Shown here: piece by piece, positions 8,713 to 51,217 of the stretch
How positions within the stretch are numbered: the first letter of the stretch is position 1
How the letters are laid out: every line of letters begins with the position of its first letter
Source: Escherichia coli
GTDB taxonomy: Bacteria > Pseudomonadota > Gammaproteobacteria > Enterobacterales > Enterobacteriaceae
Length of the DNA: 64,000 bases
Strand: one strand, 5' to 3'
Assembly (NCBI RefSeq): GCF_041886205.1
Contig: NZ_CP169029.1
Notes under the pieces: model-generated
The model's input: the letters and a program-made list of their open reading frames with translations, nothing else
What the model was told of the DNA's origin: nothing
The model's database searches: none
Translations under genes and position numbers: made by a program

Positions 8713-8797
8713 CCAGGCCTGATAAGACGCGTGATGCGTCGTATCAGGCATCGTTCACCATTGCCGGATGCGGCGTTAACGCCTTATCCGGCCTACG
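8713..8797. repeat. BIME: two REP elements between ypfH and ypfN
   Basis: gcctgataagacgcgtgatgcgtcgtatcaggc and gccggatgcggcgttaacgccttatccggcctac, both matching the REP consensus. Confidence 0.8.
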
Positions 8798-20057: not shown

Positions 20058-20130
20058 TGTAGGCCGGATAAGACGCGTCAGAGTCGCATCCGGCAATCAG
20101 CGTCCGGCAATCAGCATCCGGCGATCACCA
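20058..20130. repeat. REP element plus three degenerate ~14-bp tandem repeats
   Basis: gtaggccggataagacgcgtcagagtcgcatccggc (REP) followed by gcatccggcaatca / gcgtccggcaatca / gcatccggcgatca. Confidence 0.7.
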
Positions 20131-22134
20131 TCAGGCACCTTTCACTCCCAGCACCTTATGCGCTTTTGCCACAATATTCTCGGCGGTAAAGCCAAAGAAC
20201 GGGAACAGCTTATCCGCCGGAGCAGATTCCCCGTAACCCGTCATCCCGACAATTGCCCCTTTCAGACCAACATACTTGTACCAGTAATCGGCAATACCTG
20301 CTTCCACCGCTACGCGAGCCGCAACGTTAGAAGGCAACACCGACTCGCGATAGTCCTCATCCTGAGCGTCAAAAATATCGGTCGAGGGCAGGGAAACTAC
20401 GCGTACATTGCGACCTTCTCCTGCTAATTTCTCTGCCGCTTGCAGGGTAATTTCCATCTCTGAACCGGTGGCAATCAGAATAATATCTGGCTTACCGCCG
20501 CTGTCTTTCAGCACATAACCGCCACGAGCAATCTCTTTAACCTGATCCGGCGTACGTTCCACCTGGGCCAGATTCTGCCTGGAGAGGATCAGTGCCGTCG
20601 GTCCGTTGTGGCGCTCAACCGCCAGCTTCCAGCCCACCGCCGCTTCCACCTGATCGCACGGTCGCCAGGTGCTGAAATTTGGCGTTAAGCGCAGACTGGC
20701 CAGTTGCTCAACAGCCTGGTGCGTCGGACCATCTTCGCCCAGGCCAATTGAGTCGTGGGTATAAACCATAATCTGCCGCGCTTTCATCAGTGCCGCCATT
20801 CGCGCGGCGTTACGGGCGTATTCAACAAACATCAGGAACGTCGCGGTATACGGCACAAAGCCGCCGTGGTGCGCAATGCCGTTGGCGATAGCGGTCATGC
20901 CAAATTCACGCACCCCGTAGTGAATGTAGTTGCCCGCCGGATCTTCCTTCAGCGAAACAGAACCTTTCCAGATGGTCAGGTTGCTGGGAGCCAGATCCGC
21001 CGAACCGCCGAGCAGCTCCGGTAGTATCGGCCCGTAAGCGTTAAGCGTATTTTGCGAAGCCTTACGGGTAGCGATTTTCGCCGGATTTGCCTGTAACTCA
21101 TTGATATATTTCTGAGTCGTTTTCTCCCAGTCCTTCGGTAAACCACCGCTCATCCGACGGGTAAACTCTTCTGCCAGTTGCGGATGAGCCTTTTTATAGG
21201 CGGCAAACTTCTCATTCCAGCTCTGCTGCGCTTTTTCGCCTTTTTCGCGGGCATCCCAGGCGTGATAAATCTCTTTAGGGATTTCAAATGGCGGATGGTG
21301 CCAGCCCAGTTTTTGCCGTGCCAGCGCCACTTCTTCTTCCCCCAGCGGTGCGCCGTGCGCCTCTTCCTTACCTGCTTTATTCGGCGAACCAAAGCCAATC
21401 ACCGTACGGCAGATAATCAGCGACGGCTTATCTTTCACGCTTTGCGCTTCAAGGATCGCTTCCTTCACCGCCTGCGGATCGTGACCGTCGATTTCATGGA
21501 TCACATGCCAGTGATAGGCTTCAAAACGTTTTGCCGTATCGTCGGTAAACCAGCCTTCGGTTTCTCCATCAATCGAAATACCGTTGTGATCGTAAAAACC
21601 AATCAGCTTGCCCAGTCCCAGCGTGCCCGCCAGCGAACAGACTTCGTGGGAAATACCTTCCATCAGGCAGCCGTCGCCCATAAACACATAGGTGAAGTGA
21701 TCGACAATTTCATGATCTGGCTGGTTAAACTGCGCCGCCAGCGTACGCTCTGCTATCGCCAGCCCGACGGCGTTCGCCAAACCTTGTCCAAGTGGACCGG
21801 TGGTGGTTTCAACACCAGGCGTATAGCCGATTTCCGGGTGGCCTGGGGTTTTTGAATGCAACTGACGGAAGTTCTTCAGTTCTTCCAGCGGCAGGTCGTA
21901 GCCCGTCAGATGTAGCAAACTGTAGAGCAGCATTGACGCGTGACCGTTGGAAAGAATAAAGCGGTCGCGATCATACCAGGTTGGGTCGGTAGGGTTATGT
22001 TTAAGAAAATCGTTCCACAGCACTTCAGCAATATCAGCCATGCCCATCGGCGCGCCGGGATGACCAGAATTGGCTTTTTGTACCGCATCCATACTGAGTG
22101 CGCGAATCGCATTGGCAAGGTCTTTTCGGGACAT
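20131..22134 (-). CDS. tktB: Transketolase 2
   Basis: 667 aa from ATG 22134 ([18 protein letters not shown]...), GGAG RBS; ORF track extends 21 codons further upstream to an unlikely start. Confidence 0.92.
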
Positions 22135-23392: not shown

Positions 23393-25672
23393 ATGGATGA
23401 CCAGTTAAAACAAAGTGCACTTGATTTCCATGAATTTCCAGTTCCAGGGAAAATCCAGGTTTCTCCAACCAAGCCTCTGGCAACACAGCGCGATCTGGCG
23501 CTGGCCTACTCACCAGGCGTTGCCGCACCTTGTCTTGAAATCGAAAAAGACCCGTTAAAAGCCTACAAATATACCGCCCGCGGTAACCTGGTGGCGGTGA
23601 TCTCTAACGGTACGGCGGTGCTGGGGTTAGGCAACATTGGCGCGCTGGCAGGCAAACCGGTGATGGAAGGCAAGGGCGTTCTGTTTAAGAAATTCGCCGG
23701 GATTGATGTATTTGACATTGAAGTTGACGAACTCGACCCGGACAAATTTATTGAAGTTGTCGCCGCGCTCGAACCAACCTTCGGCGGCATCAACCTCGAA
23801 GACATTAAAGCGCCAGAATGTTTCTATATTGAACAGAAACTGCGCGAGCGGATGAATATTCCGGTATTCCACGACGATCAGCACGGCACGGCAATTATCA
23901 GCACTGCCGCCATCCTCAACGGCTTGCGCGTGGTGGAGAAAAACATCTCTGACGTGCGTATGGTGGTTTCCGGCGCGGGTGCCGCAGCAATCGCCTGTAT
24001 GAACCTGCTGGTAGCGCTGGGTCTGCAAAAACATAACATCGTGGTTTGCGATTCAAAAGGCGTTATCTATCAGGGCCGTGAGCCAAACATGGCGGAAACC
24101 AAAGCCGCATATGCGGTGGTGGATGACGGCAAACGTACCCTCGATGATGTGATTGAAGGCGCGGATATTTTCCTCGGATGTTCCGGCCCGAAAGTGCTGA
24201 CCCAGGAAATGGTGAAGAAAATGGCTCGTGCGCCAATGATCCTGGCGCTGGCGAACCCGGAACCGGAAATTCTGCCGCCGCTGGCGAAAGAAGTGCGTCC
24301 GGATGCCATCATTTGCACCGGTCGTTCTGACTATCCGAACCAGGTGAACAACGTCCTGTGCTTCCCGTTCATCTTCCGTGGCGCGCTGGACGTTGGCGCA
24401 ACCGCAATCAACGAAGAGATGAAACTGGCGGCGGTACGTGCGATTGCAGAACTCGCCCATGCGGAACAGAGCGAAGTGGTGGCTTCAGCGTATGGCGATC
24501 AGGATCTGAGCTTTGGTCCGGAATACATCATTCCAAAACCGTTTGATCCGCGCTTGATCGTTAAGATCGCTCCTGCGGTCGCTAAAGCCGCGATGGAGTC
24601 GGGCGTGGCGACGCGTCCGATTGCTGATTTCGACGTCTACATCGACAAGCTGACTGAGTTCGTTTACAAAACCAACCTGTTTATGAAGCCGATTTTCTCC
24701 CAGGCTCGCAAAGCGCCGAAGCGCGTAGTTCTGCCGGAAGGGGAAGAGGCGCGCGTTCTGCATGCCACTCAGGAACTGGTAACGCTGGGACTGGCGAAAC
24801 CGATCCTTATCGGTCGTCCGAACGTGATCGAAATGCGCATTCAGAAACTGGGCTTGCAGATCAAAGCGGGCGTTGATTTTGAGATCGTCAATAACGAATC
24901 CGATCCGCGCTTTAAAGAGTACTGGACCGAATACTTCCAGATCATGAAGCGTCGCGGCGTCACTCAGGAACAGGCGCAGCGGGCGCTGATCAGTAACCCG
25001 ACAGTGATCGGCGCGATCATGGTTCAGCGTGGCGAAGCCGATGCAATGATTTGCGGTACGGTGGGTGATTATCATGAACATTTTAGCGTGGTGAAAAATG
25101 TCTTTGGTTATCGTGATGGCGTTCACACCGCAGGTGCCATGAACGCGCTGCTGCTGCCGAGTGGTAACACCTTTATTGCCGATACATATGTTAATGATGA
25201 ACCGGATGCAGAAGAGCTGGCGGAGATCACCTTGATGGCGGCAGAAACTGTCCGTCGTTTTGGTATTGAGCCGCGCGTTGCTCTGTTGTCGCACTCCAAC
25301 TTTGGTTCTTCTGACTGCCCGTCGTCGAGCAAAATGCGTCAGGCGCTGGAACTGGTCAGGGATCGTGCGCCAGATCTGATGATTGATGGTGAAATGCACG
25401 GCGATGCAGCGCTGGTGGAAGCGATTCGCAACGACCGTATGCCGGACAGCCCTTTGAAAGGTTCTGCCAATATTCTGGTGATGCCGAACATGGAAGCTGC
25501 CCGCATTAGTTACAACTTACTGCGCGTTTCCAGCTCGGAAGGTGTGACTGTCGGTCCGGTGCTGATGGGCGTGGCGAAACCGGTTCACGTGTTAACGCCG
25601 ATCGCATCGGTGCGTCGTATCGTCAACATGGTGGCGCTGGCCGTGGTTGAAGCGCAAACCCAACCGCTGTAA
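23393..25672 (+). CDS. maeB: NADP-dependent malic enzyme
   Basis: 759 aa; N-terminal malic enzyme domain plus C-terminal phosphotransacetylase-like domain; recognised MaeB. Confidence 0.93.
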
Positions 25673-25689
25673 TTCTTTTTTAACTCTCA

Positions 25690-25717
25690 CGCTTACCCTG
25701 AATATTCAGGGTAAGCG
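25690..25717. other. 28-bp perfect palindrome downstream of maeB (possible terminator hairpin or operator)
   Basis: cgcttaccctgaatattcagggtaagcg is its own reverse complement; T-run lies 5' of it rather than 3'. Confidence 0.5.
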
Positions 25718-25964
25718 GTTTGGCTGCAATATATTAGTAAAGCTTATTACTGAGTTTGCGAATAATAAAAAAAGCAGTCTATATAATATCTCGATATTAT
25801 TTTATTTATATTCATGCGTTGCATATGAAAGTTTATGCACCACAGCGAATATCTCTCCATTCTTAGTGATCTACCTCACCTTTTAAACGCGCTTGCCGAA
25901 TTTTGTTATTTACTCTGACGAAAAATTGTCACGATACACGAAAGTTTTTCACAGGCGGCGACTC
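25718..25964 (+). promoter_or_regulatory. eut operon main promoter region upstream of eutS
   Basis: AT-rich 250-bp gap immediately upstream of the first eut gene; position only, no site motif resolved. Confidence 0.4.
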
Positions 25965-26300
25965 ATGGATAAAGAACGCATCATTCAGGAATTTGTGCCC
26001 GGCAAACAGGTCACACTGGCGCATCTCATCGCGCATCCCGGTGAGGAACTGGCGAAGAAAATCGGCGTTCCGGATGCGGGCGCAATTGGCATTATGACGC
26101 TAACTCCCGGCGAAACGGCGATGATCGCCGGTGATTTAGCGCTGAAAGCCGCTGATGTGCATATCGGTTTTCTCGACCGATTCAGCGGTGCATTGGTGAT
26201 TTATGGCTCGGTGGGCGCAGTAGAAGAAGCGTTATCACAAACCGTCAGCGGTTTAGGTCGCTTATTAAATTATACGCTTTGTGAAATGACCAAAAGTTAA
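25965..26300 (+). CDS. eutS: Ethanolamine-utilisation microcompartment shell protein EutS
   Basis: 111 aa from [15 protein letters not shown]; BMC-domain protein; ORF track extends upstream. Confidence 0.88.
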
Positions 26301-26312
26301 TACGAGGCATTC

Positions 26313-26792
26313 ATGAAACGAATTGCGTTTGTGGGTAGCGTCGGGGCAGGAAAAACAACGTTATTTAATGCGTTGCAGGGGAATTATACCCTCGCCAGAA
26401 AAACACAGGCCGTGGAATTTAATGATAAGGGCGATATTGATACGCCGGGTGAATATTTTAACCATCCCCGCTGGTATCACGCCTTAATTACCACGCTACA
26501 GGATGTAGACATGCTGATCTATGTCCATGGCGCAAATGACCCGGAAAGTCGGTTGCCTGCCGGGTTGCTGGATATTGGCGTCAGCAAACGGCAAATCGCC
26601 GTCATCAGTAAAACGGACATGCCAGATGCTGACGTCGCCGCAACGCGAAAGTTATTGCTTGAGACGGGTTTCGAAGAGCCGATTTTCGAGCTAAACAGCC
26701 ACGACCCGCAAAGCGTGCAGCAACTGGTGGATTATCTGGCATCTCTCACCAAACAGGAGGAAGCAGGTGAAAAAACTCATCACAGCGAATGA
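26313..26792 (+). CDS. eutP: Ethanolamine utilisation protein EutP (P-loop GTPase/acetate kinase-like)
   Basis: 159 aa; Walker A GSVGAGKTT. Confidence 0.9.
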   Translation: MKRIAFVGSVGAGKTTLFNALQGNYTLARKTQAVEFNDKGDIDTPGEYFNHPRWYHALITTLQDVDMLIYVHGANDPESRLPAGLLDIGVSKRQIAVISKTDMPDADVAATRKLLLETGFEEPIFELNSHDPQSVQQLVDYLASLTKQEEAGEKTHHSE

Positions 26793-27468
26793 TATTCGTG
26801 AAGCACACGCGCGCGGCGAACAGGCAATGTCCGTGGTTCTGCGCGCCAGCATTATTACCCCGGAAGCCCGTGAAGTGGCGGATCTACTGGGTTTTACCAT
26901 CACCGAATGTGATGAATCGATCCCGGTAACGGCGTCCGTGCCCGCCAGCGTGCCAGCCGACAAAACCGAAAGCCAGCGCATCCGCGAAACCATCATTGCC
27001 CAGCTGCCGGAAGGCCAGTTTACCGAAAGCCTGGTCGCACAGCTGATGGAAAAAGTGATGAAGGAAAAACAGTCGCTGGAGCAGGGCGCAATGCAGCCGA
27101 GCTTCAAATCGGTGACCGGCAAAGGCGGCATCAAAGTGATTGATGGCAGTAGCGTCAAGTTTGGTCGTTTCGACGGCGCAGAGCCGCATTGCGTGGGCTT
27201 GACTGATCTTGTGACCGGAGACGACGGCAGCAGCATGGCCGCCGGTTTTATGCAGTGGGAGAACGCATTCTTCCCGTGGACCCTGAACTACGACGAAATC
27301 GACATGGTGCTGGAAGGAGAGCTGCATGTTCGCCACGAAGGCCAAACCATGATCGCCAAAGCAGGCGACGTGATGTTTATCCCGAAAGGCTCCAGCATCG
27401 AATTTGGTACGACATCCAGCGTGAAATTCCTGTATGTCGCCTGGCCGGCTAACTGGCAATCCCTATGA
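26767..27468 (+). CDS. eutQ: Ethanolamine utilisation protein EutQ (cupin)
   Basis: 233 aa; overlaps eutP 3' end by 26 nt in another frame; recognised EutQ. Confidence 0.88.
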   Translation: MKKLITANDIREAHARGEQAMSVVLRASIITPEAREVADLLGFTITECDESIPVTASVPASVPADKTESQRIRETIIAQLPEGQFTESLVAQLMEKVMKEKQSLEQGAMQPSFKSVTGKGGIKVIDGSSVKFGRFDGAEPHCVGLTDLVTGDDGSSMAAGFMQWENAFFPWTLNYDEIDMVLEGELHVRHEGQTMIAKAGDVMFIPKGSSIEFGTTSSVKFLYVAWPANWQSL

Positions 27469-28268
27469 AAGATTTCATCACCGAAGCATGGCTAAGAGCG
27501 AACCATACGCTCAGCGAAGGCGCAGAGATCCATCTCCCTGCGGACAGTCGCCTGACGCCCTCTGCCCGGGAGTTACTGGAAAGCCGCCATCTGCGCATCA
27601 AGTTTATTGACGAGCAGGGCCGCCTGTTTGTTGACGATGAACAGCAGCAGCCGCAGCCCGTTCATGGGCTGACCAGTAGCGATGAACATCCGCAGGCGTG
27701 CTGCGAACTGTGCCGCCAGCCGGTGGCAAAAAAGCCAGATACTCTGACTCACCTGTCGGCGGAAAAAATGGTCGCCAAAAGCGATCCGCGTCTGGGTTTT
27801 CGCGCGGTTCTCGACAGCACCATTGCGCTGGCAGTGTGGCTGCAAATTGAACTGGCGGAGCCGTGGCAGCCGTGGCTGGCGGATATCCGTTCGCGTCTTG
27901 GCAACATTATGCGTGCCGATGCGCTGGGGGAACCGCTGGGCTGCCAAGCGATTGTCGGGCTTTCTGACGAAGATCTGCATCGGCTTTCTCATCAGCCGCT
28001 GCGCTATCTCGACCACGATCATCTGGTGCCGGAAGCCAGCCACGGGCGCGATGCTGCGTTGCTCAATCTGCTACGCACCAAAGTGCGGGAAACCGAAACC
28101 GTAGCGGCGCAGGTCTTTATCACCCGCAGCTTTGAAGTATTACGCCCGGACATCTTGCAGGCGCTGAACCGCCTTTCGAGCACGGTCTACGTGATGATGA
28201 TCCTGAGCGTAACGAAGAAGCCGCTAACGGTGAAGCAGATCCAACAACGACTGGGGGAAACGCAATGA
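27465..28268 (+). CDS. eutT: Ethanolamine utilisation cob(I)alamin adenosyltransferase EutT
   Basis: 267 aa; ATGA overlap with eutQ stop; recognised EutT. Confidence 0.9.
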
Positions 28269-29281
28269 TTATTGAACGTTGTCGTGAACTGGCGTTGCGA
28301 GCGCCCGCCAGAGTGGTTTTTCCGGATGCGTTAGATCAACGTGTGCTGAAAGCTGCGCAATATTTACATCAACAAGGTCTGGCAACGCCCATTCTGGTCG
28401 CCAATCCGTTTGAACTTCGTCAGTTTGCGCTCAGTCACGGCGTGGCGATGGACGGGCTACAGGTGATTGATCCGCATGGCAACCTCGCAATGCGGGAAGA
28501 ATTTGCTCATCGCTGGCTGGCCCGCGCGGGCGAAAAAACGCCGCCGGATGCGCTGGAAAAACTTACCGATCCGCTGATGTTCGCCGCCGCAATGGTCAGC
28601 GCCGGTAAAGCGGATGTCTGTATCGCGGGCAACCTCTCTTCCACGGCGAATGTGCTGCGTGCCGGATTACGCATTATCGGCTTGCAGCCAGGCTGTAAAA
28701 CGCTCTCTTCCATTTTCCTGATGCTGCCACAGTACAGCGGCCCGGCGTTGGGCTTTGCCGATTGCAGCGTGGTGCCACAGCCGACGGCGGCGCAACTGGC
28801 GGATATCGCGCTTGCCAGTGCCGAAACCTGGCGCGCCATCACCGGAGAAGAGCCGCGCGTGGCGATGTTGTCGTTTTCCAGCAACGGTAGCGCCCGTCAC
28901 CCCTGCGTAGCCAACGTCCAGCAGGCGACAGAAATCGTCCGTGAGCGCGCACCAAAGCTGGTGGTTGATGGCGAGTTACAGTTTGACGCCGCCTTCGTGC
29001 CGGAAGTGGCGGCGCAAAAAGCGCCTGCAAGCCCGCTACAAGGCAAAGCCAATGTGATGGTTTTTCCGTCGCTGGAAGCCGGAAATATTGGCTACAAAAT
29101 CGCACAACGACTTGGCGGATATCGTGCCGTCGGGCCATTGATACAAGGACTTGCCGCGCCGATGCACGATCTCTCTCGTGGTTGTAGCGTGCAGGAAATT
29201 ATCGAGCTGGCGCTGGTGGCAGCAGTGCCGCGTCAGACAGAAGTGAACCGCGAAAGCAGTTTACAAACACTGGTTGAATGA
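28265..29281 (+). CDS. eutD: Phosphotransacetylase EutD (EutI)
   Basis: 338 aa PTA-family protein; ATGA overlap with eutT. Confidence 0.92.
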
Positions 29282-29319
29282 ACGGTCCCGTTCTGGACCC
29301 TGATAAAGAGGAAAGCACA

Positions 29320-29613
29320 ATGGAAGCATTAGGAATGATCGAAACCCGGGGCCTGGTTGCACTGATTGAGGCTTCTGACGCGATGGTTAAAGCTGCGCGC
29401 GTCAAGCTGGTTGGTGTTAAGCAGATTGGCGGCGGCCTGTGTACTGCCATGGTTCGTGGTGATGTTGCAGCCTGTAAAGCCGCGACCGATGCAGGTGCCG
29501 CAGCGGCACAGCGTATCGGCGAGCTGGTATCTGTACACGTTATCCCGCGTCCGCACGGCGACCTGGAAGAAGTCTTCCCGATCGGCCTGAAAGGCGATAG
29601 CAGCAACCTGTAA
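29320..29613 (+). CDS. eutM: Microcompartment shell protein EutM (BMC-H)
   Basis: 97 aa from [26 protein letters not shown] (canonical BMC domain), AGAGGA RBS; ORF track starts 14 codons upstream. Confidence 0.9.
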
Positions 29614-29719
29614 TCACCCTGTGTGACGTCGATTCGGGCGTCACGCTCTCTCCTTTTTCATTTTACCTTCTGCGGAGGGTAGGGGGAGCTTTTACCTGAA
29701 ATACGCCACGGAGGCGGGT

Positions 29720-30007
29720 ATGAAACTGGCAGTCGTCACTGGACAAATTGTTTGTACCGTACGCCATCACGGACTGGCGCATGACAAATTGCTGATGGTG
29801 GAAATGATTGATCCACAAGGTAATCCTGACGGGCAATGTGCCGTCGCCATCGACAATATTGGCGCGGGAACCGGGGAGTGGGTGTTGCTGGTGAGTGGCA
29901 GTTCCGCCCGCCAGGCGCATAAAAGCGAAACGTCACCGGTCGATCTGTGCGTGATTGGCATTGTCGATGAGGTGGTGTCTGGCGGTCAGGTAATTTTCCA
30001 CAAATAA
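29720..30007 (+). CDS. eutN: Microcompartment vertex protein EutN (BMV/CcmL-EutN family)
   Basis: 95 aa MKLAVVTGQIVCTVRHHGL...; recognised EutN. Confidence 0.92.
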   Translation: MKLAVVTGQIVCTVRHHGLAHDKLLMVEMIDPQGNPDGQCAVAIDNIGAGTGEWVLLVSGSSARQAHKSETSPVDLCVIGIVDEVVSGGQVIFHK

Positions 30008-30018
30008 GGCAGAACATC

Positions 30019-31422
30019 ATGAATCAACAGGATATTGAACAGGTGGTGAAAGCGGTACTGCTGAAAATGCAAAGCAGTGACACGCCGCCCGCCACCGTTC
30101 ATGAGATGGGCATTTTCGCGTCCCTGGATGACGCCGTTGCGGCAGCCAAAGTTGCCCAGCAAGGGTTAAAGAGCGTGGCAATGCGCCAGTTAGCCATTGC
30201 TGCCATTCGTGAAGCAGGCGAAAAACACGCCAGAGATTTAGCGGAACTTGCCGTCAGTGAAACCGGCATGGGCCGCGTCGAAGATAAATTTGCCAAAAAC
30301 GTCGCTCAGGCGCGCGGCACGCCAGGCGTTGAGTGTCTCTCTCCGCAGGTGCTGACTGGCGACAACGGCCTGACTTTAATTGAAAACGCGCCCTGGGGCG
30401 TGGTGGCTTCGGTGACGCCTTCCACTAACCCGGCGGCAACCGTAATTAACAACGCCATCAGCCTGATTGCCGCGGGCAACAGCGTCATTTTTGCCCCGCA
30501 TCCGGCGGCGAAAAAAGTCTCCCAGCGGGCGATCACGCTGCTCAACCAGGCGATTGTTGCCGCAGGCGGGCCGGAAAACTTACTGGTTACTGTGGCAAAT
30601 CCGGATATCGAAACCGCGCAACGCTTGTTCAAGTTTCCGGGCATCGGCCTTCTGGTGGTGACCGGCGGCGAAGCGGTAGTAGAAGCGGCGCGTAAACACA
30701 CCAATAAACGTCTGATTGCCGCAGGCGCTGGCAACCCGCCGGTAGTGGTGGATGAAACCGCTGACCTCGCCCGTGCTGCTCAGTCCATCGTCAAAGGCGC
30801 GTCTTTCGATAACAACATCATTTGTGCCGACGAAAAGGTACTGATTGTTGTTGATAGCGTAGCCGATGAACTGATGCGTCTGATGCAAGGCCAGCACGCG
30901 GTGAAACTGACCGCAGAGCAGGCGCAGCAACTGCAACCGGTGTTGCTGAAAAATATCGACGAGCGCGGAAAAGGCACCGTCAGCCGTGACTGGGTAGGTC
31001 GCGATGCGGCGAAAATCGCGGCGGCAATCGGCCTTAAAGTTCCGGAACAAACGCGACTGCTGTTTGTAGAAACCACCGCAGAACATCCGTTTGCCGTGAC
31101 CGAACTGATGATGCCGGTGCTGCCCGTCGTGCGCGTCGCCAACGTGGCGGATGCCATTGCGCTGGCGGTGAAACTGGAAGGCGGTTGCCACCACACGGCG
31201 GCAATGCACTCGCGCAACATCGAAAACATGAACCAGATGGCGAACGCCATTGATACCAGCATTTTCGTTAAGAACGGACCGTGCATTGCCGGGCTGGGTC
31301 TGGGCGGGGAAGGCTGGACCACCATGACCATCACCACGCCAACCGGTGAAGGGGTAACCAGCGCGCGGACGTTTGTCCGTCTGCGTCGCTGTGTATTAGT
31401 CGATGCGTTTCGCATTGTTTAA
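30019..31422 (+). CDS. eutE: Acetaldehyde dehydrogenase (acetylating) EutE
   Basis: 467 aa aldehyde dehydrogenase-family protein; recognised EutE. Confidence 0.92.
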   Translation: MNQQDIEQVVKAVLLKMQSSDTPPATVHEMGIFASLDDAVAAAKVAQQGLKSVAMRQLAIAAIREAGEKHARDLAELAVSETGMGRVEDKFAKNVAQARGTPGVECLSPQVLTGDNGLTLIENAPWGVVASVTPSTNPAATVINNAISLIAAGNSVIFAPHPAAKKVSQRAITLLNQAIVAAGGPENLLVTVANPDIETAQRLFKFPGIGLLVVTGGEAVVEAARKHTNKRLIAAGAGNPPVVVDETADLARAAQSIVKGASFDNNIICADEKVLIVVDSVADELMRLMQGQHAVKLTAEQAQQLQPVLLKNIDERGKGTVSRDWVGRDAAKIAAAIGLKVPEQTRLLFVETTAEHPFAVTELMMPVLPVVRVANVADAIALAVKLEGGCHHTAAMHSRNIENMNQMANAIDTSIFVKNGPCIAGLGLGGEGWTTMTITTPTGEGVTSARTFVRLRRCVLVDAFRIV

Positions 31423-31432
31423 GGAGTAACCG

Positions 31433-32269
31433 ATGGCGCACGACGAACAAGGGCTCACCCCACGTCTGCAAACGGCGGCAACGCTGTGTAACCAGACGCC
31501 CGCCGCGACGGAATCTCCGCTATGGCTGGGGGTGGATCTGGGCACCTGCGATGTGGTGTCGATGGTTGTCGACCGCGACGGTCAGCCGGTGGCGGTATGC
31601 CTCGACTGGGCCGATGTGGTCCGCGACGGCATCGTCTGGGATTTCTTCGGCGCGGTCACCATTGTTCGTCGCCATCTCGACACGCTCGAGCAGCAATTCG
31701 GGCGTCGTTTTAGCCATGCGGCGACTTCATTTCCTCCAGGTACGGACCCGCGTATTTCCATCAACGTGCTGGAGTCTGCCGGACTGGAAGTGAGCCATGT
31801 GCTGGATGAGCCAACCGCAGTCGCGGATCTACTGCAACTGGATAACGCCGGTGTAGTGGATATCGGCGGTGGCACTACCGGCATTGCCATCGTGAAAAAG
31901 GGCAAAGTGACGTACTCGGCGGATGAAGCCACCGGCGGACATCACATCTCTCTGACTCTCGCCGGAAATCGTCGTATTTCGCTGGAAGAGGCAGAGCAGT
32001 ACAAGCGCGGTCATGGTGACGAGATTTGGCCCGCGGTGAAACCGGTGTACGAAAAAATGGCGGACATTGTCGCCCGGCATATTGAAGGGCAGGGCATTAC
32101 TGATTTATGGCTGGCGGGCGGCTCTTGTATGCAACCGGGCGTGGCGGAACTGTTTCGCAAACAATTCCCGGCGTTAAAGGTGCATTTACCGCAGCACAGT
32201 TTGTTTATGACCCCGCTGGCGATCGCCAGTAGTGGGCGAGAGAAAGCGGAGGGGCTATATGCAAAATGA
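31433..32269 (+). CDS. eutJ: Ethanolamine utilisation chaperone-like protein EutJ (actin/Hsp70 fold)
   Basis: 278 aa; DLGTxxV and DIGGGTT ATPase motifs. Confidence 0.9.
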   Translation: MAHDEQGLTPRLQTAATLCNQTPAATESPLWLGVDLGTCDVVSMVVDRDGQPVAVCLDWADVVRDGIVWDFFGAVTIVRRHLDTLEQQFGRRFSHAATSFPPGTDPRISINVLESAGLEVSHVLDEPTAVADLLQLDNAGVVDIGGGTTGIAIVKKGKVTYSADEATGGHHISLTLAGNRRISLEEAEQYKRGHGDEIWPAVKPVYEKMADIVARHIEGQGITDLWLAGGSCMQPGVAELFRKQFPALKVHLPQHSLFMTPLAIASSGREKAEGLYAK

Positions 32270-33446
32270 ATTGCAGACCGCGCTCTTTCAGGCGTTCGAT
32301 ACCCTGAATCTGCAACGGGTAAAAACATTTAGCGTTCCACCGGTGACGCTTTGCGGTCCGGGCGCGGTGAGCAGTTGCGGGCAGCAAGCGCAAACGCGTG
32401 GGCTGAAACATCTGTTCGTGATGGCAGACAGCTTTTTGCATCAGGCGGGGATGACCGCCGGGCTGACGCGTAGCCTGGCCGTTAAAGGCATCGCCATGAC
32501 GCTCTGGCCGTGTCCGGTGGGCGAACCGTGCATTACTGACGTGTGTGCAGCCGTGGCGCAGTTGCGTGAATCAGGCTGTGACGGGGTGATTGCGTTTGGC
32601 GGCGGCTCGGTGCTGGATGCAGCAAAAGCCGTGGCGTTGCTGGTGACGAACCCCGATAGCACGCTGGCGGAAATGTCAGAAACCAGCGTTCTGCAACCGC
32701 GCCTGCCGTTGATTGCCATTCCAACGACCGCCGGAACCGGCTCTGAAACCACCAACGTAACGGTGATTATCGACGCGGTGAGCGGGCGCAAGCAGGTGTT
32801 AGCCCATGCCTCGCTGATGCCGGATGTGGCGATTCTCGACGCCGCATTGACCGAAGGTGTGCCGTCGCATGTCACGGCGATGACCGGTATTGACGCGTTA
32901 ACCCATGCCATTGAAGCGTACAGCGCGCTGAACGCCACACCGTTTACTGACAGTCTGGCGATTGGCGCTATTGCGATGATTGGCAAATCGCTGCCGAAAG
33001 CGGTGGGCTACGGTCATGACCTTGCCGCGCGCGAGAGCATGTTACTGGCTTCATGTATGGCGGGAATGGCGTTTTCCAGTGCGGGGCTTGGGTTGTGCCA
33101 CGCGATGGCGCATCAGCCAGGGGCGGCGCTGCATATTCCACACGGTCTGGCGAACGCCATGTTGCTGCCAACGGTGATGGAATTTAACCGGATGGTTTGT
33201 CGCGAACGGTTTAGTCAGATTGGTCGGGCACTGCGAACTAAAAAATCCGACGATCGTGACGCTATTAACGCGGTAAGTGAGCTGATTGCGGAAGTTGGGA
33301 TTGGTAAACGACTGGGCGATGTTGGCGCGACATCTGCGCATTACGGTGCATGGGCGCAGGCCGCGCAGGAAGATATTTGTCTGCGCAGCAACCCGCGTAC
33401 CGCCAGCCTGGAACAGATTGTCGGACTGTACGCGGCGGCGCAATAA
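32259..33446 (+). CDS. eutG: Alcohol dehydrogenase EutG (iron-containing)
   Basis: 395 aa from MQNELQTALFQAF with GGAGGGG RBS; overlaps eutJ by 11 nt; Fe-ADH family. Confidence 0.9.
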   Translation: MQNELQTALFQAFDTLNLQRVKTFSVPPVTLCGPGAVSSCGQQAQTRGLKHLFVMADSFLHQAGMTAGLTRSLAVKGIAMTLWPCPVGEPCITDVCAAVAQLRESGCDGVIAFGGGSVLDAAKAVALLVTNPDSTLAEMSETSVLQPRLPLIAIPTTAGTGSETTNVTVIIDAVSGRKQVLAHASLMPDVAILDAALTEGVPSHVTAMTGIDALTHAIEAYSALNATPFTDSLAIGAIAMIGKSLPKAVGYGHDLAARESMLLASCMAGMAFSSAGLGLCHAMAHQPGAALHIPHGLANAMLLPTVMEFNRMVCRERFSQIGRALRTKKSDDRDAINAVSELIAEVGIGKRLGDVGATSAHYGAWAQAAQEDICLRSNPRTASLEQIVGLYAAAQ

Positions 33447-33447
33447 A

Positions 33448-33731
<284 letters not shown>

Positions 33732-33762
33732 AATAAATAACAACTAACAGGGAGTAAAGGCG

Positions 33763-34989
33763 ATGGGAATTAACGAAATCATCATGTACATCATGATGTT
33801 CTTTATGCTGATAGCTGCCGTAGACAGGATCCTGTCGCAGTTCGGCGGTTCTGCTCGTTTCCTCGGTAAGTTCGGTAAAAGTATCGAAGGATCAGGCGGT
33901 CAGTTCGAAGAAGGCTTTATGGCAATGGGCGCTCTGGGTCTGGCGATGGTCGGTATGACCGCGCTGGCACCGGTACTGGCTCACGTACTCGGGCCGGTAA
34001 TTATCCCGGTTTACGAAATGCTCGGCGCAAACCCGTCAATGTTCGCCGGAACGCTGCTGGCGTGCGATATGGGCGGCTTCTTCCTCGCCAAAGAGCTGGC
34101 GGGCGGCGACGTAGCAGCGTGGCTATACTCTGGGTTAATTCTCGGGTCGATGATGGGGCCAACGATTGTGTTTTCCATTCCGGTGGCGCTCGGCATTATC
34201 GAACCTTCTGACCGTCGTTATCTGGCGCTCGGCGTGCTGGCGGGCATTGTGACCATTCCGATTGGCTGTATTGCTGGTGGTCTGGTTGCTATGTACTCCG
34301 GTGTGCAGATCAATGGTCAGCCGGTGGAATTCACCTTTGCGCTGATCCTGATGAACATGATCCCGGTACTTATCGTTGCGGTGCTGGTGGCGCTGGGGCT
34401 GAAATTCATCCCGGAAAAAATGATCAACGGCTTCCAGATCTTCGCCAAATTCCTCGTTGCATTGATCACCCTCGGTCTTGCTGCCGCGGTAGTGAAATTC
34501 CTCCTTGGCTGGGAACTGATCCCCGGTCTGGACCCTATCTTTATGGCTCCTGGCGATAAACCCGGTGAAGTGATGCGCGCCATTGAAGTTATCGGTTCTA
34601 TCTCCTGCGTGCTGTTAGGGGCGTATCCAATGGTGCTGCTGCTGACTCGCTGGTTTGAAAAACCGCTGATGAGCGTCGGTAAACTACTGAATATGAACAA
34701 CATTGCGGCAGCCGGCATGGTGGCAACGCTTGCCAACAACATCCCGATGTTTGGCATGATGAAGCAGATGGATACCCGCGGCAAAGTCATCAACTGCGCC
34801 TTCGCCGTTTCCGCTGCTTTCGCCCTGGGTGACCACTTAGGCTTCGCCGCTGCCAACATGAACGCCATGATCTTCCCGATGATTGTCGGCAAGTTGATCG
34901 GCGGCGTAACGGCGATTGGCGTGGCGATGATGCTGGTGCCAAAAGAAGACGCGACCACGACTAAAACCGAAGCGGAGGCACAATCGTGA
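33763..34989 (+). CDS. eutH: Ethanolamine permease/facilitator EutH
   Basis: 408 aa polytopic membrane protein; recognised EutH. Confidence 0.92.
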   Translation: MGINEIIMYIMMFFMLIAAVDRILSQFGGSARFLGKFGKSIEGSGGQFEEGFMAMGALGLAMVGMTALAPVLAHVLGPVIIPVYEMLGANPSMFAGTLLACDMGGFFLAKELAGGDVAAWLYSGLILGSMMGPTIVFSIPVALGIIEPSDRRYLALGVLAGIVTIPIGCIAGGLVAMYSGVQINGQPVEFTFALILMNMIPVLIVAVLVALGLKFIPEKMINGFQIFAKFLVALITLGLAAAVVKFLLGWELIPGLDPIFMAPGDKPGEVMRAIEVIGSISCVLLGAYPMVLLLTRWFEKPLMSVGKLLNMNNIAAAGMVATLANNIPMFGMMKQMDTRGKVINCAFAVSAAFALGDHLGFAAANMNAMIFPMIVGKLIGGVTAIGVAMMLVPKEDATTTKTEAEAQS

Positions 34990-36389
34990 ACACTCGCCAG
35001 CTATTGAGCGTCGGTATCGATATCGGCACCACCACCACCCAGGTGATTTTCTCCCACCTGGAACTGGTTAACCGTGCGGCGGTGTCGCAGGTGCCGCGCT
35101 ACGAATTCATCAAACGCGAAATTAGCTGGCAAAGCCCGGTGTACTTTACCCCTGTCGATAAACAGGGTGGTTTAAAAGAAGCGGAACTGAAATCGCTGAT
35201 TTTAGAGCAATATCAGGCTGCGGGCATTGCGCCGGAAAGCGTTGATTCTGGTGCCATCATCATCACCGGTGAAAGCGCGAAAACCCGCAATGCTCGCCCG
35301 GCGGTGATGGCGCTCTCTCAATCGCTGGGGGATTTTGTCGTTGCCAGCGCCGGGCCGCACCTCGAATCCGTGATCGCCGGTCACGGAGCCGGGGCACAAA
35401 CCCTTTCTGAACAACGGCTGTGTCGGGTACTGAATATCGACATCGGCGGTGGCACCGCGAACTACGCCCTGTTCGATGCCGGAAAAATCAGCGGCACCGC
35501 CTGCCTCAACGTCGGTGGTCGCCTGCTGGAAACCGACAGCCAGGGGCGCGTGGTTTACGCTCATAAACCGGGGCAGATGATTGTGGATGAGTGCTTCGGT
35601 GCAGGCACTGACGCCCGTTCGCTGACCGGCGCGCAGCTGGTGCAGGTTACCCGGCGGATGGCGGCGCTGATTGTCGAAGTGATTGACGGAACGCTTTCGC
35701 CGCTCGCGCAGGCATTGATGCAAACCGGTTTGCTGCCCGCAGGTGTTACGCCCGAAATCATTACGCTTTCTGGCGGCGTGGGCGAATGTTATCGCCACCA
35801 GCCCGCCGACCCGTTCTGTTTTGCCGATATTGGCCCACTTCTGGCAACGGCGCTGCATGACCATCCGCGCCTGCGTGAGATGAATGTGCAGTTTCCAGCG
35901 CAAACCGTACGCGCCACGGTGATTGGCGCGGGTGCACATACCCTTTCGCTCTCTGGCAGCACAATCTGGCTGGAGGGCGTACAACTGCCGCTGCGCAATT
36001 TGCCGGTGGCGATCCCAATTGATGAAACGGATCTGGTGTGTGCCTGGCAACAGGCGCTGATTCAGCTGGATCTTGATCCTAAAACTGACGCGTACGTGCT
36101 GGCGCTTCCCGCCTCGCTGCCTGTGCGTTACGCCGCGGTACTGACGGTCATCAACGCGCTGGTCGATTTCGTCGCGCGTTTTCCGAATCCGCATCCCCTG
36201 CTGGTGGTGGCCGGGCAGGACTTTGGTAAAGCTCTGGGCATGTTGTTGCGCCCACAGCTACAACAACTCCCGTTGGCAGTCATTGACGAAGTGATTGTCC
36301 GCGCGGGGGACTATATCGACATTGGTACGCCTCTTTTTGGCGGATCGGTTGTGCCGGTGACGGTGAAATCACTCGCATTTCCTTCCTGA
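34986..36389 (+). CDS. eutA: Ethanolamine ammonia-lyase reactivase EutA
   Basis: 467 aa; GTG start overlapping eutH stop (GTGA); recognised EutA. Confidence 0.9.
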   Translation: MNTRQLLSVGIDIGTTTTQVIFSHLELVNRAAVSQVPRYEFIKREISWQSPVYFTPVDKQGGLKEAELKSLILEQYQAAGIAPESVDSGAIIITGESAKTRNARPAVMALSQSLGDFVVASAGPHLESVIAGHGAGAQTLSEQRLCRVLNIDIGGGTANYALFDAGKISGTACLNVGGRLLETDSQGRVVYAHKPGQMIVDECFGAGTDARSLTGAQLVQVTRRMAALIVEVIDGTLSPLAQALMQTGLLPAGVTPEIITLSGGVGECYRHQPADPFCFADIGPLLATALHDHPRLREMNVQFPAQTVRATVIGAGAHTLSLSGSTIWLEGVQLPLRNLPVAIPIDETDLVCAWQQALIQLDLDPKTDAYVLALPASLPVRYAAVLTVINALVDFVARFPNPHPLLVVAGQDFGKALGMLLRPQLQQLPLAVIDEVIVRAGDYIDIGTPLFGGSVVPVTVKSLAFPS

Positions 36390-36400
36390 GGGAACGACTT

Positions 36401-37762
36401 ATGAAACTAAAGACCACATTGTTCGGCAATGTATATCAGTTTAAGGATGTAAAAGAGGTGCTGGCTAAAGCCAACGAACTGCGTTCGGGGGATGTGCTGG
36501 CGGGCGTTGCAGCGGCAAGCTCACAGGAGCGCGTGGCGGCAAAGCAGGTGTTGTCGGAAATGACCGTAGCGGACATCCGCAATAATCCGGTAATTGCCTA
36601 TGAAGATGACTGCGTGACGCGGCTGATTCAGGACGATGTTAACGAAACGGCCTACAACCAGATTAAAAACTGGAGCATCAGCGAACTGCGTGAGTATGTG
36701 CTGAGCGATGAAACCAGCGTGGACGACATTGCCTTTACCCGCAAAGGGCTGACCTCGGAAGTGGTCGCGGCGGTAGCGAAGATTTGCTCCAACGCGGACC
36801 TGATCTACGGCGCGAAGAAAATGCCGGTAATCAAAAAGGCCAATACCACCATCGGTATTCCGGGCACCTTTAGCGCCCGTTTGCAGCCAAATGACACCCG
36901 TGACGACGTGCAAAGTATCGCCGCGCAAATCTACGAAGGGCTTTCCTTCGGGGTGGGTGATGCGGTGATCGGCGTTAACCCGGTGACAGACGACGTGGAA
37001 AACTTAAGCCGCGTGTTGGACACCATTTATGGCGTGATCGACAAATTCAACATCCCAACTCAGGGCTGCGTACTGGCGCACGTCACCACCCAGATCGAAG
37101 CGATTCGTCGCGGCGCACCAGGCGGGCTGATTTTCCAGAGTATCTGTGGCAGCGAAAAAGGGCTGAAAGAGTTTGGCGTGGAACTGGCGATGCTCGATGA
37201 AGCACGCGCAGTGGGCGCGGAGTTCAACCGTATCGCCGGGGAAAACTGCCTCTACTTCGAAACCGGGCAGGGTTCTGCGCTATCCGCTGGCGCTAACTTC
37301 GGCGCAGACCAGGTGACGATGGAAGCACGTAACTATGGGCTGGCGCGTCATTACGATCCGTTTATCGTCAACACCGTGGTCGGCTTTATTGGGCCGGAGT
37401 ATCTCTACAACGATCGCCAGATTATCCGTGCGGGCTTAGAAGATCACTTTATGGGCAAGCTGAGCGGCATCTCTATGGGCTGTGACTGCTGCTACACCAA
37501 CCACGCTGACGCTGACCAGAACCTCAACGAAAACCTGATGATCCTGCTCGCCACCGCAGGCTGCAACTACATCATGGGGATGCCGCTGGGCGATGACATC
37601 ATGCTCAACTATCAGACCACCGCATTCCACGACACTGCCACTGTGCGTCAGTTACTCAACCTGCGCCCGTCACCGGAGTTTGAACGCTGGCTGGAAAGCA
37701 TGGGCATTATGGCAAACGGTCGCCTGACCAAACGGGCGGGCGATCCGTCACTGTTCTTCTGA
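36401..37762 (+). CDS. eutB: Ethanolamine ammonia-lyase large subunit EutB
   Basis: 453 aa; recognised EutB; begins 11 bp after eutA stop. Confidence 0.93.
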   Translation: MKLKTTLFGNVYQFKDVKEVLAKANELRSGDVLAGVAAASSQERVAAKQVLSEMTVADIRNNPVIAYEDDCVTRLIQDDVNETAYNQIKNWSISELREYVLSDETSVDDIAFTRKGLTSEVVAAVAKICSNADLIYGAKKMPVIKKANTTIGIPGTFSARLQPNDTRDDVQSIAAQIYEGLSFGVGDAVIGVNPVTDDVENLSRVLDTIYGVIDKFNIPTQGCVLAHVTTQIEAIRRGAPGGLIFQSICGSEKGLKEFGVELAMLDEARAVGAEFNRIAGENCLYFETGQGSALSAGANFGADQVTMEARNYGLARHYDPFIVNTVVGFIGPEYLYNDRQIIRAGLEDHFMGKLSGISMGCDCCYTNHADADQNLNENLMILLATAGCNYIMGMPLGDDIMLNYQTTAFHDTATVRQLLNLRPSPEFERWLESMGIMANGRLTKRAGDPSLFF

Positions 37763-37782
37763 TGACGCGGAGATAACACATC

Positions 37783-38667
37783 ATGGATCAAAAACAGATT
37801 GAAGAAATTGTACGCAGCGTGATGGCGTCAATGGGACAAGCGGCCCCCGCGCCGTCAGAAGCAAAGTGCGCCACCACCTGTGCGGCACCGGTGACCTCGG
37901 AAAGCTGCGCGCTGGATTTAGGCTCTGCGGAAGCAAAAGCGTGGATTGGCGTTGAAAACCCGCATCGCGCAGACGTATTAACAGAACTGCGCCGCAGCAC
38001 CGTGGCCCGCGTTTGTACCGGTCGTGCCGGTCCGCGTCCACGTACTCAGGCGCTGCTGCGTTTCCTGGCCGATCACTCTCGTTCGAAAGATACCGTACTG
38101 AAAGAAGTGCCGGAAGAGTGGGTGAAAGCACAAGGCTTGTTGGAAGTCCGCTCCGAAATTAGCGACAAAAATCTCTACCTGACTCGCCCGGATATGGGCC
38201 GCCGCCTGTGTGCAGAAGCTGTTGAAGCGCTGAAAGCACAGTGTGTTGCTAATCCGGACGTACAGGTCGTTATTTCTGATGGCCTGTCAACTGATGCGAT
38301 CACCGTGAACTACGAAGAGATCCTGCCACCGCTGATGGCGGGCCTGAAACAGGCCGGGCTGAAAGTCGGCACGCCATTCTTTGTTCGTTATGGTCGCGTG
38401 AAGATTGAAGATCAGATCGGTGAGATCCTCGGCGCGAAAGTAGTGATCCTGTTAGTGGGCGAACGCCCGGGATTAGGGCAGTCAGAAAGCCTCTCCTGCT
38501 ACGCCGTTTACTCACCGCGTATGGCGACCACCGTTGAGGCCGATCGCACCTGCATCTCAAACATTCACCAGGGCGGCACGCCGCCGGTTGAAGCCGCAGC
38601 GGTAATTGTGGATTTGGCGAAACGAATGCTGGAGCAGAAAGCATCCGGCATCAACATGACCCGATAA
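37783..38667 (+). CDS. eutC: Ethanolamine ammonia-lyase small subunit EutC
   Basis: 294 aa; recognised EutC. Confidence 0.92.
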
Positions 38668-38676
38668 GGAGGCATC

Positions 38677-39336
38677 ATGCCAGCTTTAGATTTGATTCGA
38701 CCGTCGGTAACCGCCATGCGGGTGATTGCCTCCGTTAACGCCGAATTTGCGCGTGAACTAAAATTGCCGCCGCATATTCGTAGCCTTGGGCTGATTTCTG
38801 CCGACTCCGATGACGTCACCTACATTGCCGCTGACGAAGCGACCAAACAGGCGATGGTCGAAGTGGTGTATGGCCGCTCGCTGTATGCGGGAGCTGCACA
38901 CGGACCGTCACCGACTGCCGGTGAAGTGCTGATTATACTGGGTGGGCCAAACCCGGCGGAAGTGCGTGCCGGTCTGGATGCGATGGTTGCACATATTGAA
39001 AATGGCGCTGCTTTCCAGTGGGCTAATGACGCAGAAAACACCGCATTCCTGGCACATGTAGTTTCGCGTACCGGTTCTTATCTCTCATCAACCGCCGGGA
39101 TCACGCTTGGCGATCCGATGGCGTATCTGGTGGCACCGCCGCTGGAAGCGACCTACGGCATTGATGCAGCGTTGAAATCTGCCGACGTACAGCTGGTGAC
39201 CTATGTCCCGCCACCGTCTGAAACCAACTACTCGGCAGCATTTTTAACCGGTAGCCAGGCCGCGTGTAAAGCAGCCTGTAACGCCTTTACCGATGCAGTG
39301 CTGGAAATCGCGCGTAATCCAATCCAGCGTGCGTAA
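38677..39336 (+). CDS. eutL: Microcompartment shell protein EutL (tandem BMC domains)
   Basis: 219 aa; recognised EutL. Confidence 0.92.
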
Positions 39337-39348
39337 CGGAGGTTGCCG

Positions 39349-39849
39349 ATGATCAATGCACTGGGATTGCTGGAAGTGGACGGCATGGTCGCCGCGATAG
39401 ATGCAGCGGATGCCATGCTCAAAGCAGCTAACGTTCGTCTGCTCAGTCACGAAGTGCTTGACCCTGGTCGCTTAACGCTGGTGGTGGAAGGCGATCTGGC
39501 GGCGTGTCGTGCGGCGCTGGACGCAGGTTGTGCTGCCGCGATGCGTACCGGGCGTGTCATCAGCCGCAAGGAGATCGGTCGGCCAGACGATGACACCCAG
39601 TGGCTGGTTACTGGCTTTAACCGCCAGCCGAAGCAACCCGTAAAGGAACCCGACGCGCCAGTTATCGTCGCCGAATCTGCTGACGAGTTGTTGGCGCTGT
39701 TAACATCAGTACGTCAGGGAATGACGGCAGGAGAAGTGGCTGCCCACTTTGGCTGGCCGCTGGAAAAAGCCAGAAATGCGCTCGAACAGCTCTTTTCTGC
39801 CGGGACGTTACGTAAACGCAGTAGTCGTTATCGTCTCAAGCCCCATTAA
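39349..39849 (+). CDS. eutK: Microcompartment shell protein EutK (BMC domain plus C-terminal helix-turn-helix-like tail)
   Basis: 166 aa from MINALGLLEVDGMVAAIDAADAM; ACGGAGG RBS 7 nt upstream of ATG 39349. Confidence 0.9.
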   Translation: MINALGLLEVDGMVAAIDAADAMLKAANVRLLSHEVLDPGRLTLVVEGDLAACRAALDAGCAAAMRTGRVISRKEIGRPDDDTQWLVTGFNRQPKQPVKEPDAPVIVAESADELLALLTSVRQGMTAGEVAAHFGWPLEKARNALEQLFSAGTLRKRSSRYRLKPH

Positions 39850-39894
39850 CCTGTCGGAGGTGCCGGGTGTCCTACAACACCCGGCATTAACATC

Positions 39895-40947
39895 ATGAAA
39901 AAGACCCGTACAGCCAATTTGCACCATCTTTATCATGAACCCTTACCCGAAAACCTGAAGCTCACGCCGAAGGTCGAAGTGGATAATGTTCATCAACGAC
40001 AGACAACGGATGTCTATGAACATGCTTTAACGATTACCGCCTGGCAGCAGATTTACGATCAGCTGCATCCGGGCAAGTTTCATGGTGAATTTACGGAAAT
40101 TCTACTCGATGATATTCAGGTTTTTCGTGAATACACCGGTCTGGCGCTGCGTCAGTCGTGCCTGGTCTGGCCGAACTCGTTCTGGTTTGGCATTCCGGCG
40201 ACGCGCGGTGAGCAGGGATTTATCGGTTCGCAATGTCTGGGAAGCGCGGAAATCGCCACCCGCCCTGGTGGCACTGAATTTGAACTGAGCACGCCGGATG
40301 ATTACACGATCCTGAGCGTGGTGCTTTCTGAAGATGTCATCACCCGGCAGGCTAACTTTTTGCATAACCCGGATCGGGTATTACATATGCTGCGTAGCCA
40401 GTCGGCGCTGGAAGTGAAAGAGCAGCATAAAGCCGCGCTGTGGGGCTTTGTCCAACAGGCGCTGGCGACGTTTTGCGAGAACCCGGAAAATCTCCATCAG
40501 CCTGCAGTGCGAAAAGTGCTGGGGGATAATTTGCTAATGGCGATGGGGGCGATGCTGGAAGACGCGCAACCAATGGTGACGGCGGAAAGCATCAGCCATC
40601 AGAGCTACCGTAGATTACTTTCCCGCGCCCGTGAATATGTGCTGGAAAATATGTCTGAGCCGGTGACGGTGCTGGACTTGTGTAATCAACTGCATGTCAG
40701 TCGCCGCACGCTACAAAACGCGTTTCACGCTATTTTAGGCATTGGCCCAAACGCGTGGCTGAAACGCATTCGCCTGAACGCCGTACGCCGCGAACTGATA
40801 AGCCCGTGGTCGCAAAGCACAACGGTAAAAGACGCCGCCATGCAGTGGGGATTCTGGCATCTGGGGCAATTTGCCACGGATTACCAGCAGCTGTTTGCCG
40901 AGAAGCCGTCGTTGACGTTGCATCAGCGGATGCGGGAATGGGGGTGA
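39895..40947 (+). CDS. eutR: AraC-family transcriptional activator of the eut operon, EutR
   Basis: 350 aa; C-terminal AraC-type HTH; recognised EutR. Confidence 0.92.
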
Positions 40948-40952
40948 GGGAG

Positions 40953-41855
<903 letters not shown>

Positions 41856-45451: not shown

Positions 45452-45488
45452 AAAGGCCAGGCAGTAACATTACTGACTGGCCTTTTTA
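45452..45488 (+). terminator. Rho-independent terminator downstream of yfeX (also abuts yfeW 3' end)
   Basis: aaaggccag...ctggccttt stem followed by TTTTATT. Confidence 0.65.
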
Positions 45489-51060: not shown

Positions 51061-51217
51061 TTCACCTCTGTTTCCTCCCTGCATGTGTGGGGAGGATTTC
51101 GTCTTATTCCCTTTTCAACTTCCAAATCACCAAACGGTATATAAAACCGTTACTCCTTTCACGTCCGTTATAAATATGATGGCTATTAGAAAGTCATTAA
51201 ATTTATAAGGGTGCGCA

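Follow-up and report, generated by a model that had tools for sequence, protein, structure and literature searches.

The window analysed here, a 64-kb stretch of Escherichia coli chromosome, carries a eut operon for ethanolamine catabolism, whose 17 genes (eutSPQTDMNEJGHABCLKR) occupy positions 25965-40947 on the plus strand. All of them are full-length open reading frames (ORFs), both in the ORF listing for 24-43 kb and in the RefSeq annotation of strain 6EVA, the nearest relative of the window, which is collinear with it throughout and differs by 25 mismatches and 0 gaps. We are highly confident that this region is a standard, complete EUT1-type eut microcompartment operon, uninterrupted, in a non-K-12 E. 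coli, and that its eutA-eutB junction is an empty attachment site of the type occupied by the cryptic prophage CPZ-55.

Gene content and integrity of the eut operon

The genes of the operon are listed with protein length, identity to the MG1655 protein, and NCBIfam model and score.

25965-26300, plus strand: eutS, shell protein; 111 aa, 100% to MG1655; NF012012, 247 bits (cut-off 123)
26313-26792, plus strand: eutP, acetate kinase / GTPase-like; 159 aa, 99.4% (M124I); NF012011, 350 bits (cut-off 258)
26767-27468, plus strand: eutQ, cupin acetate kinase; GTG start, 233 aa, 100%; NF012001, 502 bits
27465-28268, plus strand: eutT, corrinoid adenosyltransferase; 267 aa, 99.6%; NF011595, 570 bits
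28265-29281, plus strand: eutD, phosphotransacetylase; 338 aa, 100%; NF007233, 411 bits (cut-off 310)
29320-29613, plus strand: eutM, major hexameric shell protein; 97 aa, 100%; NF012018, 213 bits
29720-30007, plus strand: eutN, pentameric vertex protein; 95 aa, 100%; NF011992, 210 bits
30019-31422, plus strand: eutE, acetylating acetaldehyde dehydrogenase; 467 aa, 98.5%; NF011927, 739 bits
31433-32269, plus strand: eutJ, DnaK-like chaperone; 278 aa, 98.9%; NF011660, 400 bits
32259-33446, plus strand: eutG, alcohol dehydrogenase; 395 aa, 99.0%; NF011998, 890 bits
33763-34989, plus strand: eutH, ethanolamine permease; 408 aa, 99.0%; NF011665, 873 bits
34986-36389, plus strand: eutA, ethanolamine ammonia-lyase reactivase; GTG start, 467 aa, 98.3%; NF007991, 1070 bits
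36401-37762, plus strand: eutB, ethanolamine ammonia-lyase large subunit; 453 aa, 100%; NF011649, 665 bits (cut-off 554)
37783-38667, plus strand: eutC, ethanolamine ammonia-lyase small subunit; 294 aa, N33 missing; NF003971, 340 bits (cut-off 230)
38677-39336, plus strand: eutL, trimeric tandem-domain shell protein; 219 aa, 97.3%, six substitutions; NF011934, 402 bits
39349-39849, plus strand: eutK, shell protein; 166 aa, 99.4%; NF012010, 362 bits
39895-40947, plus strand: eutR, AraC-family activator; 350 aa, 98.6%; NF007522, 786 bits

In the 6EVA annotation the same 17 genes appear (eutD under the name pta), with maeB upstream and hemF convergent downstream, and gene order and these neighbours agree among the RefSeq annotations of 6EVA, MG1655 and W3110 and the window. 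No internal stops were found in the 17 translated genes, and none of the eut ORFs carries a frameshift or premature stop. Five gene pairs overlap: eutP/Q by 26 nt, eutQ/T by 4, eutT/D by 4, eutJ/G by 11 and eutH/A by 4. An earlier reading of this DNA from its letters and ORFs (hereafter the sequence-only reading) had described 17 full-length genes with coupled overlaps on one strand, and its coordinates proved exact. Sixteen of the 17 Eut proteins have the same length as in MG1655, the exception being EutC (294 instead of 295 aa), and identity to MG1655 across the 17 translations ranges from 97.3 to 100%.

Every Eut protein exceeds the curated cut-off of its own NCBIfam model, nearly all of them end to end. 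The signature enzyme of EUT1 operons is represented by matches to both EutB, which is identical to the MG1655 protein, and EutC. The shell set comprises BMC-H (EutM, EutK and EutS), BMC-T (EutL) and BMC-P (EutN) proteins, all above the cut-off of models that are equivalogs for EutM, N, L and K and a subfamily for EutS; the full profile is covered in four of them and positions 2-216 of 217 in EutL. EutA, T, E, D, G, H, J, P and Q and the AraC-type EutR complete the set in canonical order on one strand. Compared with the EUT1 operon of E. coli and Salmonella enterica, the window has the same genes, order, strand and maeB/hemF neighbours, and the differences are allelic only: eutC lacks one codon, a few missense changes occur, and eutG and eutH are separated by an extra 100-bp unit of repetitive extragenic palindrome (REP)/bacterial interspersed mosaic element (BIME) type. 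The 17-gene operon of E. coli and Salmonella was described by Kofoid et al. (1999; cited in PMC7617246), and the W3110 locus in PMC11334477; an uninterrupted eut operon of this kind is ordinary and already well described in the literature.

The eutA-eutB junction and its occupancy

The TGA of eutA lies at 36387-36389 and eutB starts at 36401, both precisely where the sequence-only reading had placed them, and 11 nt separate the two genes. The junction consists of two features.

36382-36389, plus strand: core CTTCCTGA, a single unoccupied 8-bp copy that includes the eutA TGA
36390-36400, plus strand: eutA-eutB spacer GGGAACGACTT, 11 nt, read directly from the sequence

In MG1655 (NC_000913.3), 'cryptic prophage CPZ-55' is annotated at 2558691-2565480 between eutB (b2441) and eutA (b2451), as the sequence-only reading had stated, and the two genes are not adjacent in that genome. 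The element is 6.8 kb long and carries intZ and yffL-yffS on the strand opposite to eut. In K-12 the core CTTCCTGA flanks CPZ-55 on either side; it likewise flanks an island at the same place in CAVP776 and stands once at the junction in the window, where a single copy at the eutA stop is joined directly to the eutB leader, as in an unoccupied attB. The comparison with MG1655 and other E. coli that had been suggested along with that reading thus located the CPZ-55 core across the eutA-eutB junction. An 8-bp duplication, written TCAGGAAG on the opposite strand, and a conserved spacer have been reported previously (PMC6379469), and the spacer bases GGGAACGACTT are the same beside eutB in MG1655 and in W3110. 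The MG1655/BW25113 locus shares with the window the flanking genes, the core and the eutB ribosome-binding region, whereas the window is without the 6.8-kb element and has one core copy instead of two.

The motif GAGGGA, formed by the GA of the stop codon and the start of the spacer, is likely the eutB ribosome-binding site. Because the core holds the eutA stop and part of the likely eutB Shine-Dalgarno sequence, insertion would keep both, yet part eutB from its promoter. No integrase or prophage remnant was found between eutA and eutB in the window, where the spacer is just 11 nt, and a CPZ-55 query on 6EVA matched only the flanking eutA and eutB bases (3% coverage). The window junction is the empty site at which CPZ-55 and its relatives with intZ-type integrases attach.

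The occupancy of this site was surveyed by megablast of window positions 35400-37400 against 5,426 complete E. coli genomes. Both eutA and eutB were matched in all of them (6EVA at 100%), and the junction is contiguous in 4,964 (91.5%). A second survey of the same genome set, with CPZ-55 plus its flanks as the query, found the full element at ≥99% identity in 213 genomes; in about 244 further genomes the best match is an intZ-like integrase beside eutB at 80-90% identity. These two groups explain almost all of the approximately 460 split junctions.

At least three different elements use the 8-bp core. Besides CPZ-55, these are the K99B element, of about 10.5 kb, which encodes IntZ, a YafO-type toxin, helix-turn-helix (HTH) proteins and a TerS-like protein, and the CAVP776 island, a decayed 11.2-kb region with a truncated integrase, insertion sequence (IS) elements, a group II intron, gadC and murI. 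Of the nine CPZ-55 proteins, a PHROGs scan could name two, the integrase and a TerS-like protein (PHROG 1482, E = 5.5e-13), and the other seven were without a match. CPZ-55 contains no structural genes and looks, from its gene content, more like a phage satellite than a decayed phage; a literature search for a link between CPZ-55 and phage-inducible chromosomal islands (PICIs) found none. Dadswell et al. (PMC6652756) marked the site as a 'prophage insertion hot spot' and considered CPZ-55 characteristic of K-12. With the 8-bp duplication, the hot spot and the inability of prophage-bearing K-12 to use ethanolamine all published, the view of the sequence-only reading that the system is well described and not new is borne out.

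In strain 102651, the 3' end of eutA is truncated by IS903B next to an island with gadC and murI. It is a natural isolate in which the eut operon is genuinely broken.

CPZ-55 is evidently polymorphic within K-12, and its absence scarless: the K-12 derivative CJ236 carries it at the same place as MG1655, whereas in W3110 (NC_007779.1), also K-12, eutA and eutB are adjacent and the junction is base-for-base identical to that of the window. An empty junction could therefore be secondary, a CPZ-55-like element having once been present and been excised precisely, as in the W3110 line. Such a loss would be traceless, and the sharing of the core by different elements indicates repeated visits to the site. 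However, the predominance of unoccupied junctions among complete genomes speaks against this history, and the junction is contiguous in all five genomes of the clone to which the window belongs (see below), so that parsimony favours a site that was never occupied; we consider prior occupancy and excision very unlikely in this case.

The core at the eutA stop might also serve as a shared landing pad for small, satellite-like elements with intZ and a TerS-like protein, such as CPZ-55, its relative in K99B and the decayed CAVP776 island. Their scarless gain and loss, of the kind seen between MG1655 and W3110, would reversibly switch ethanolamine catabolism on and off in about 8% of E. coli. We regard this as improbable; the window would then represent the 'on' state. 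Both the hot spot and the functional loss have been published; the regulated, reversible switch is a proposal only.

Source lineage and relation to K-12

The sequence-only reading took the missing prophage to mean either an ancestral unoccupied state or a non-K-12 lineage. The second of these stands, on grounds of divergence; the absence of CPZ-55 as proof of either does not, because the W3110 junction is scarless and identical, and an empty site therefore establishes neither a non-K-12 origin nor a never-occupied state. The MG1655 reference is the exception at the eut locus, and with W3110 also without CPZ-55, the missing prophage alone is unusable as a lineage marker.

The operon is at least 99% identical in only five genomes (wlxctx60, 6EVA, PT62, LP5-1 and MB53), the runners-up reaching 98.5%, and the window is accordingly placed in a small clone with 6EVA and wlxctx60. 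Within the eut genes it differs from 6EVA by 4 non-synonymous changes, located in eutP, eutA and eutL. Identity to MG1655 is mosaic, ranging from 95.8 to 99.95% per 2 kb, with 99.5-99.95% at 10-18 kb of the window and 95.8-97.9% across 30-56 kb. Within the operon, nucleotide identity to MG1655 is 100% in eutS, 99.8-99.9% in eutP-eutQ, 95.5% in eutL and 99.6% in eutK, a pattern suggestive of recombination breakpoints within the operon and in its surroundings. Four structural differences from MG1655 exist besides CPZ-55: the REP/BIME unit, two intergenic deletions of about 145-150 bp, and the loss of yfeS. The yfeS gene, for a WGR-domain protein, and its flanking DNA (958 bp in MG1655) are absent at window position 56079/56080, where yfeK abuts cysM.

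A K-12 chromosome would be recognized by more than 99.9% identity to and collinearity with MG1655; the window instead shows mosaic identity and, CPZ-55 included, five structural differences. That it comes from a K-12 derivative that lost CPZ-55 in the manner of W3110 is so improbable as to be nearly negligible, even though W3110 proves that K-12 can be without the element, some blocks at 10-18 kb are 99.9-99.95% identical to MG1655, and eutS, eutP and eutQ are as close as given above. The drop in identity across 30-56 kb, the missing yfeS, three differing indels of REP/BIME type and nearest genomes that are the five named above and not K-12 all contradict it, and a K-12 origin of the window was rejected, being ruled out by the measured divergence from MG1655. 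W3110 shares the uninterrupted operon and the identical junction sequence but has K-12 alleles (for example, an EutA protein accession that is the same as in CJ236), whereas the window is up to 4% off MG1655, the K-12 reference compared. The source strain is hence assigned to non-K-12 E. coli, an assignment that follows from the mosaic divergence of 1-4% from MG1655, the yfeS absence, the REP/BIME-type indels and the clone membership, and not from the absence of the prophage.

The yfeK-cysM arrangement without yfeS is annotated in 6EVA and K99B too, and yfeS is present in CAVP776 as well as MG1655. The pbp4b/yfeX spacer (window about 45454-45483) is longer in MG1655 by about 150 bp and the cysP/ucpA spacer (window about 51102-51105) by about 143 bp, in both cases probably owing to a REP element.

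Predicted function and intergenic features

The Eut pathway scheme is well established in Salmonella and E. coli. By analogy with it, EutR together with ethanolamine and adenosylcobalamin (AdoCbl) would activate promoter PI upstream of eutS, and a single long transcript would cover all 17 genes, eutR included. EutH would import ethanolamine, which EutBC, the B12-dependent ammonia-lyase, would convert to acetaldehyde and ammonia, with EutA reactivating the lyase and EutT adenosylating its cofactor. EutE would then form acetyl-CoA, EutD acetyl-phosphate, EutP/EutQ acetate and ATP, and EutG ethanol, and the shell of EutS, M, N, L and K would retain acetaldehyde. The 11-nt junction matters in this scheme because eutB, C, L, K and R would rely on read-through from PI.

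In MG1655 and BW25113, the oppositely oriented CPZ-55 uncouples eutBCLK from PI and abolishes ethanolamine use. In BW25113, eutS and eutR respond to ethanolamine, eutB does not, and microcompartments were not seen (PMC7617246). This strain is Eut- and acts like a eut deletion; once the prophage is scarlessly excised by engineering, it can again grow with ethanolamine as its nitrogen source, and prophage-cured BW25113 acts like W3110 wild type (PMC11334477). In other E. coli whose operon is uninterrupted, ethanolamine induction, microcompartments and growth have been demonstrated (PMC11334477; PMC7617246). The window has the functional configuration of the locus. Since the junction is intact, the source strain of the window is predicted to be Eut+ given B12, and induction by ethanolamine and AdoCbl, microcompartment formation and growth on ethanolamine would be expected by analogy. 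In contrast to MG1655 and BW25113, it should be capable of using ethanolamine, which derives from gut and urine and provides nitrogen and carbon.

Three intergenic regions may bear on expression of the operon.

25673-25964, plus strand: maeB-eutS intergenic region, 292 nt, 4 differences from MG1655; expected main EutR-dependent promoter PI
29614-29719, plus strand: eutM-eutN spacer, 106 nt, two stable hairpins, minimum free energy -43.5 kcal/mol, z = -3.3; identical in MG1655
33448-33732, plus strand: REP/BIME array in the eutG-eutH spacer, 100-bp unit, 2.8 copies, 96% matches, Tandem Repeats Finder score 528

The expected position of PI upstream of eutS follows a figure legend in PMC7617246. 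A scan for consensus sigma-70 promoters and terminators over 25500-41500 gave 2 promoter-like sites against 9.2 in shuffled sequences and 19 terminator-like sites against 19.1, and of these only the hairpin after eutM stood out. The eutD-M, eutM-N and eutK-R spacers show no difference from MG1655. In the eutM-eutN spacer, the first hairpin, with 10 pairs at 29621-29646, precedes a T-rich run and is terminator-like; the hairpins may be a partial or leaky terminator or an mRNA stabiliser, and the hairpin might set the ratio of eutS-M to downstream expression. The eutG-eutH array has three units in the window and two in K-12, other strains having spacers of about 115 bp, and two of the units match Rfam naRNA4 (RF02564, 74 bits). 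With gathering thresholds, an Rfam scan over all 64 kb returned only REP-derived naRNA4 and no riboswitch or known regulatory RNA in the eut region.

Several points weigh against a functional, ordinary operon. The Eut+ state is a prediction from the sequence; the proteins carry missense changes relative to K-12 (8 in EutA, 7 in EutE, 6 in EutL and 5 in EutR); the extra eutG-eutH unit could in principle change polarity; and PI was not detected in the maeB-eutS region by the consensus sigma-70 scan, although this miss is expected for an activator-dependent promoter and such a scan tells nothing about PI and PII. The operon might thus be intact as ORFs and functionally impaired, through missense changes, notably those in EutL and EutA together with the one-residue EutC deletion, or through altered polarity at an array of three rather than two units. 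Against such impairment, all Eut proteins score far above equivalog cut-offs across full models, and the EutA, EutE, EutL and EutR alleles or similar ones recur in many genomes at 98.4% operon identity. EutC and EutL of 6EVA carry low-numbered WP_ identifiers, from which we infer that they are long-known alleles. The missing N33 of EutC lies beyond the stretch that targets green fluorescent protein (GFP) to the microcompartment, residues 1-20 (PMC11334477), and ahead of residue 51, the first position of the NCBIfam match. REP copy number also varies over the five strains compared, with spacers of about 115, 216 and 316 bp. Impairment therefore appears highly unlikely, and an intact, ordinary EUT1 operon is the reading that we retain.

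An 84-codon ORF that runs through the REP/BIME array (33447-33701) is almost certainly spurious. Elsewhere in the window, the interval between ypfN and ypfH holds a third naRNA4/REP match, of 85.7 bits, at 8716-8793 on the minus strand, and the tktB-ypfG spacer contains 3.7 copies of a REP-like 14-bp unit, GCATCCGGCAATCA, at 20086-20137.

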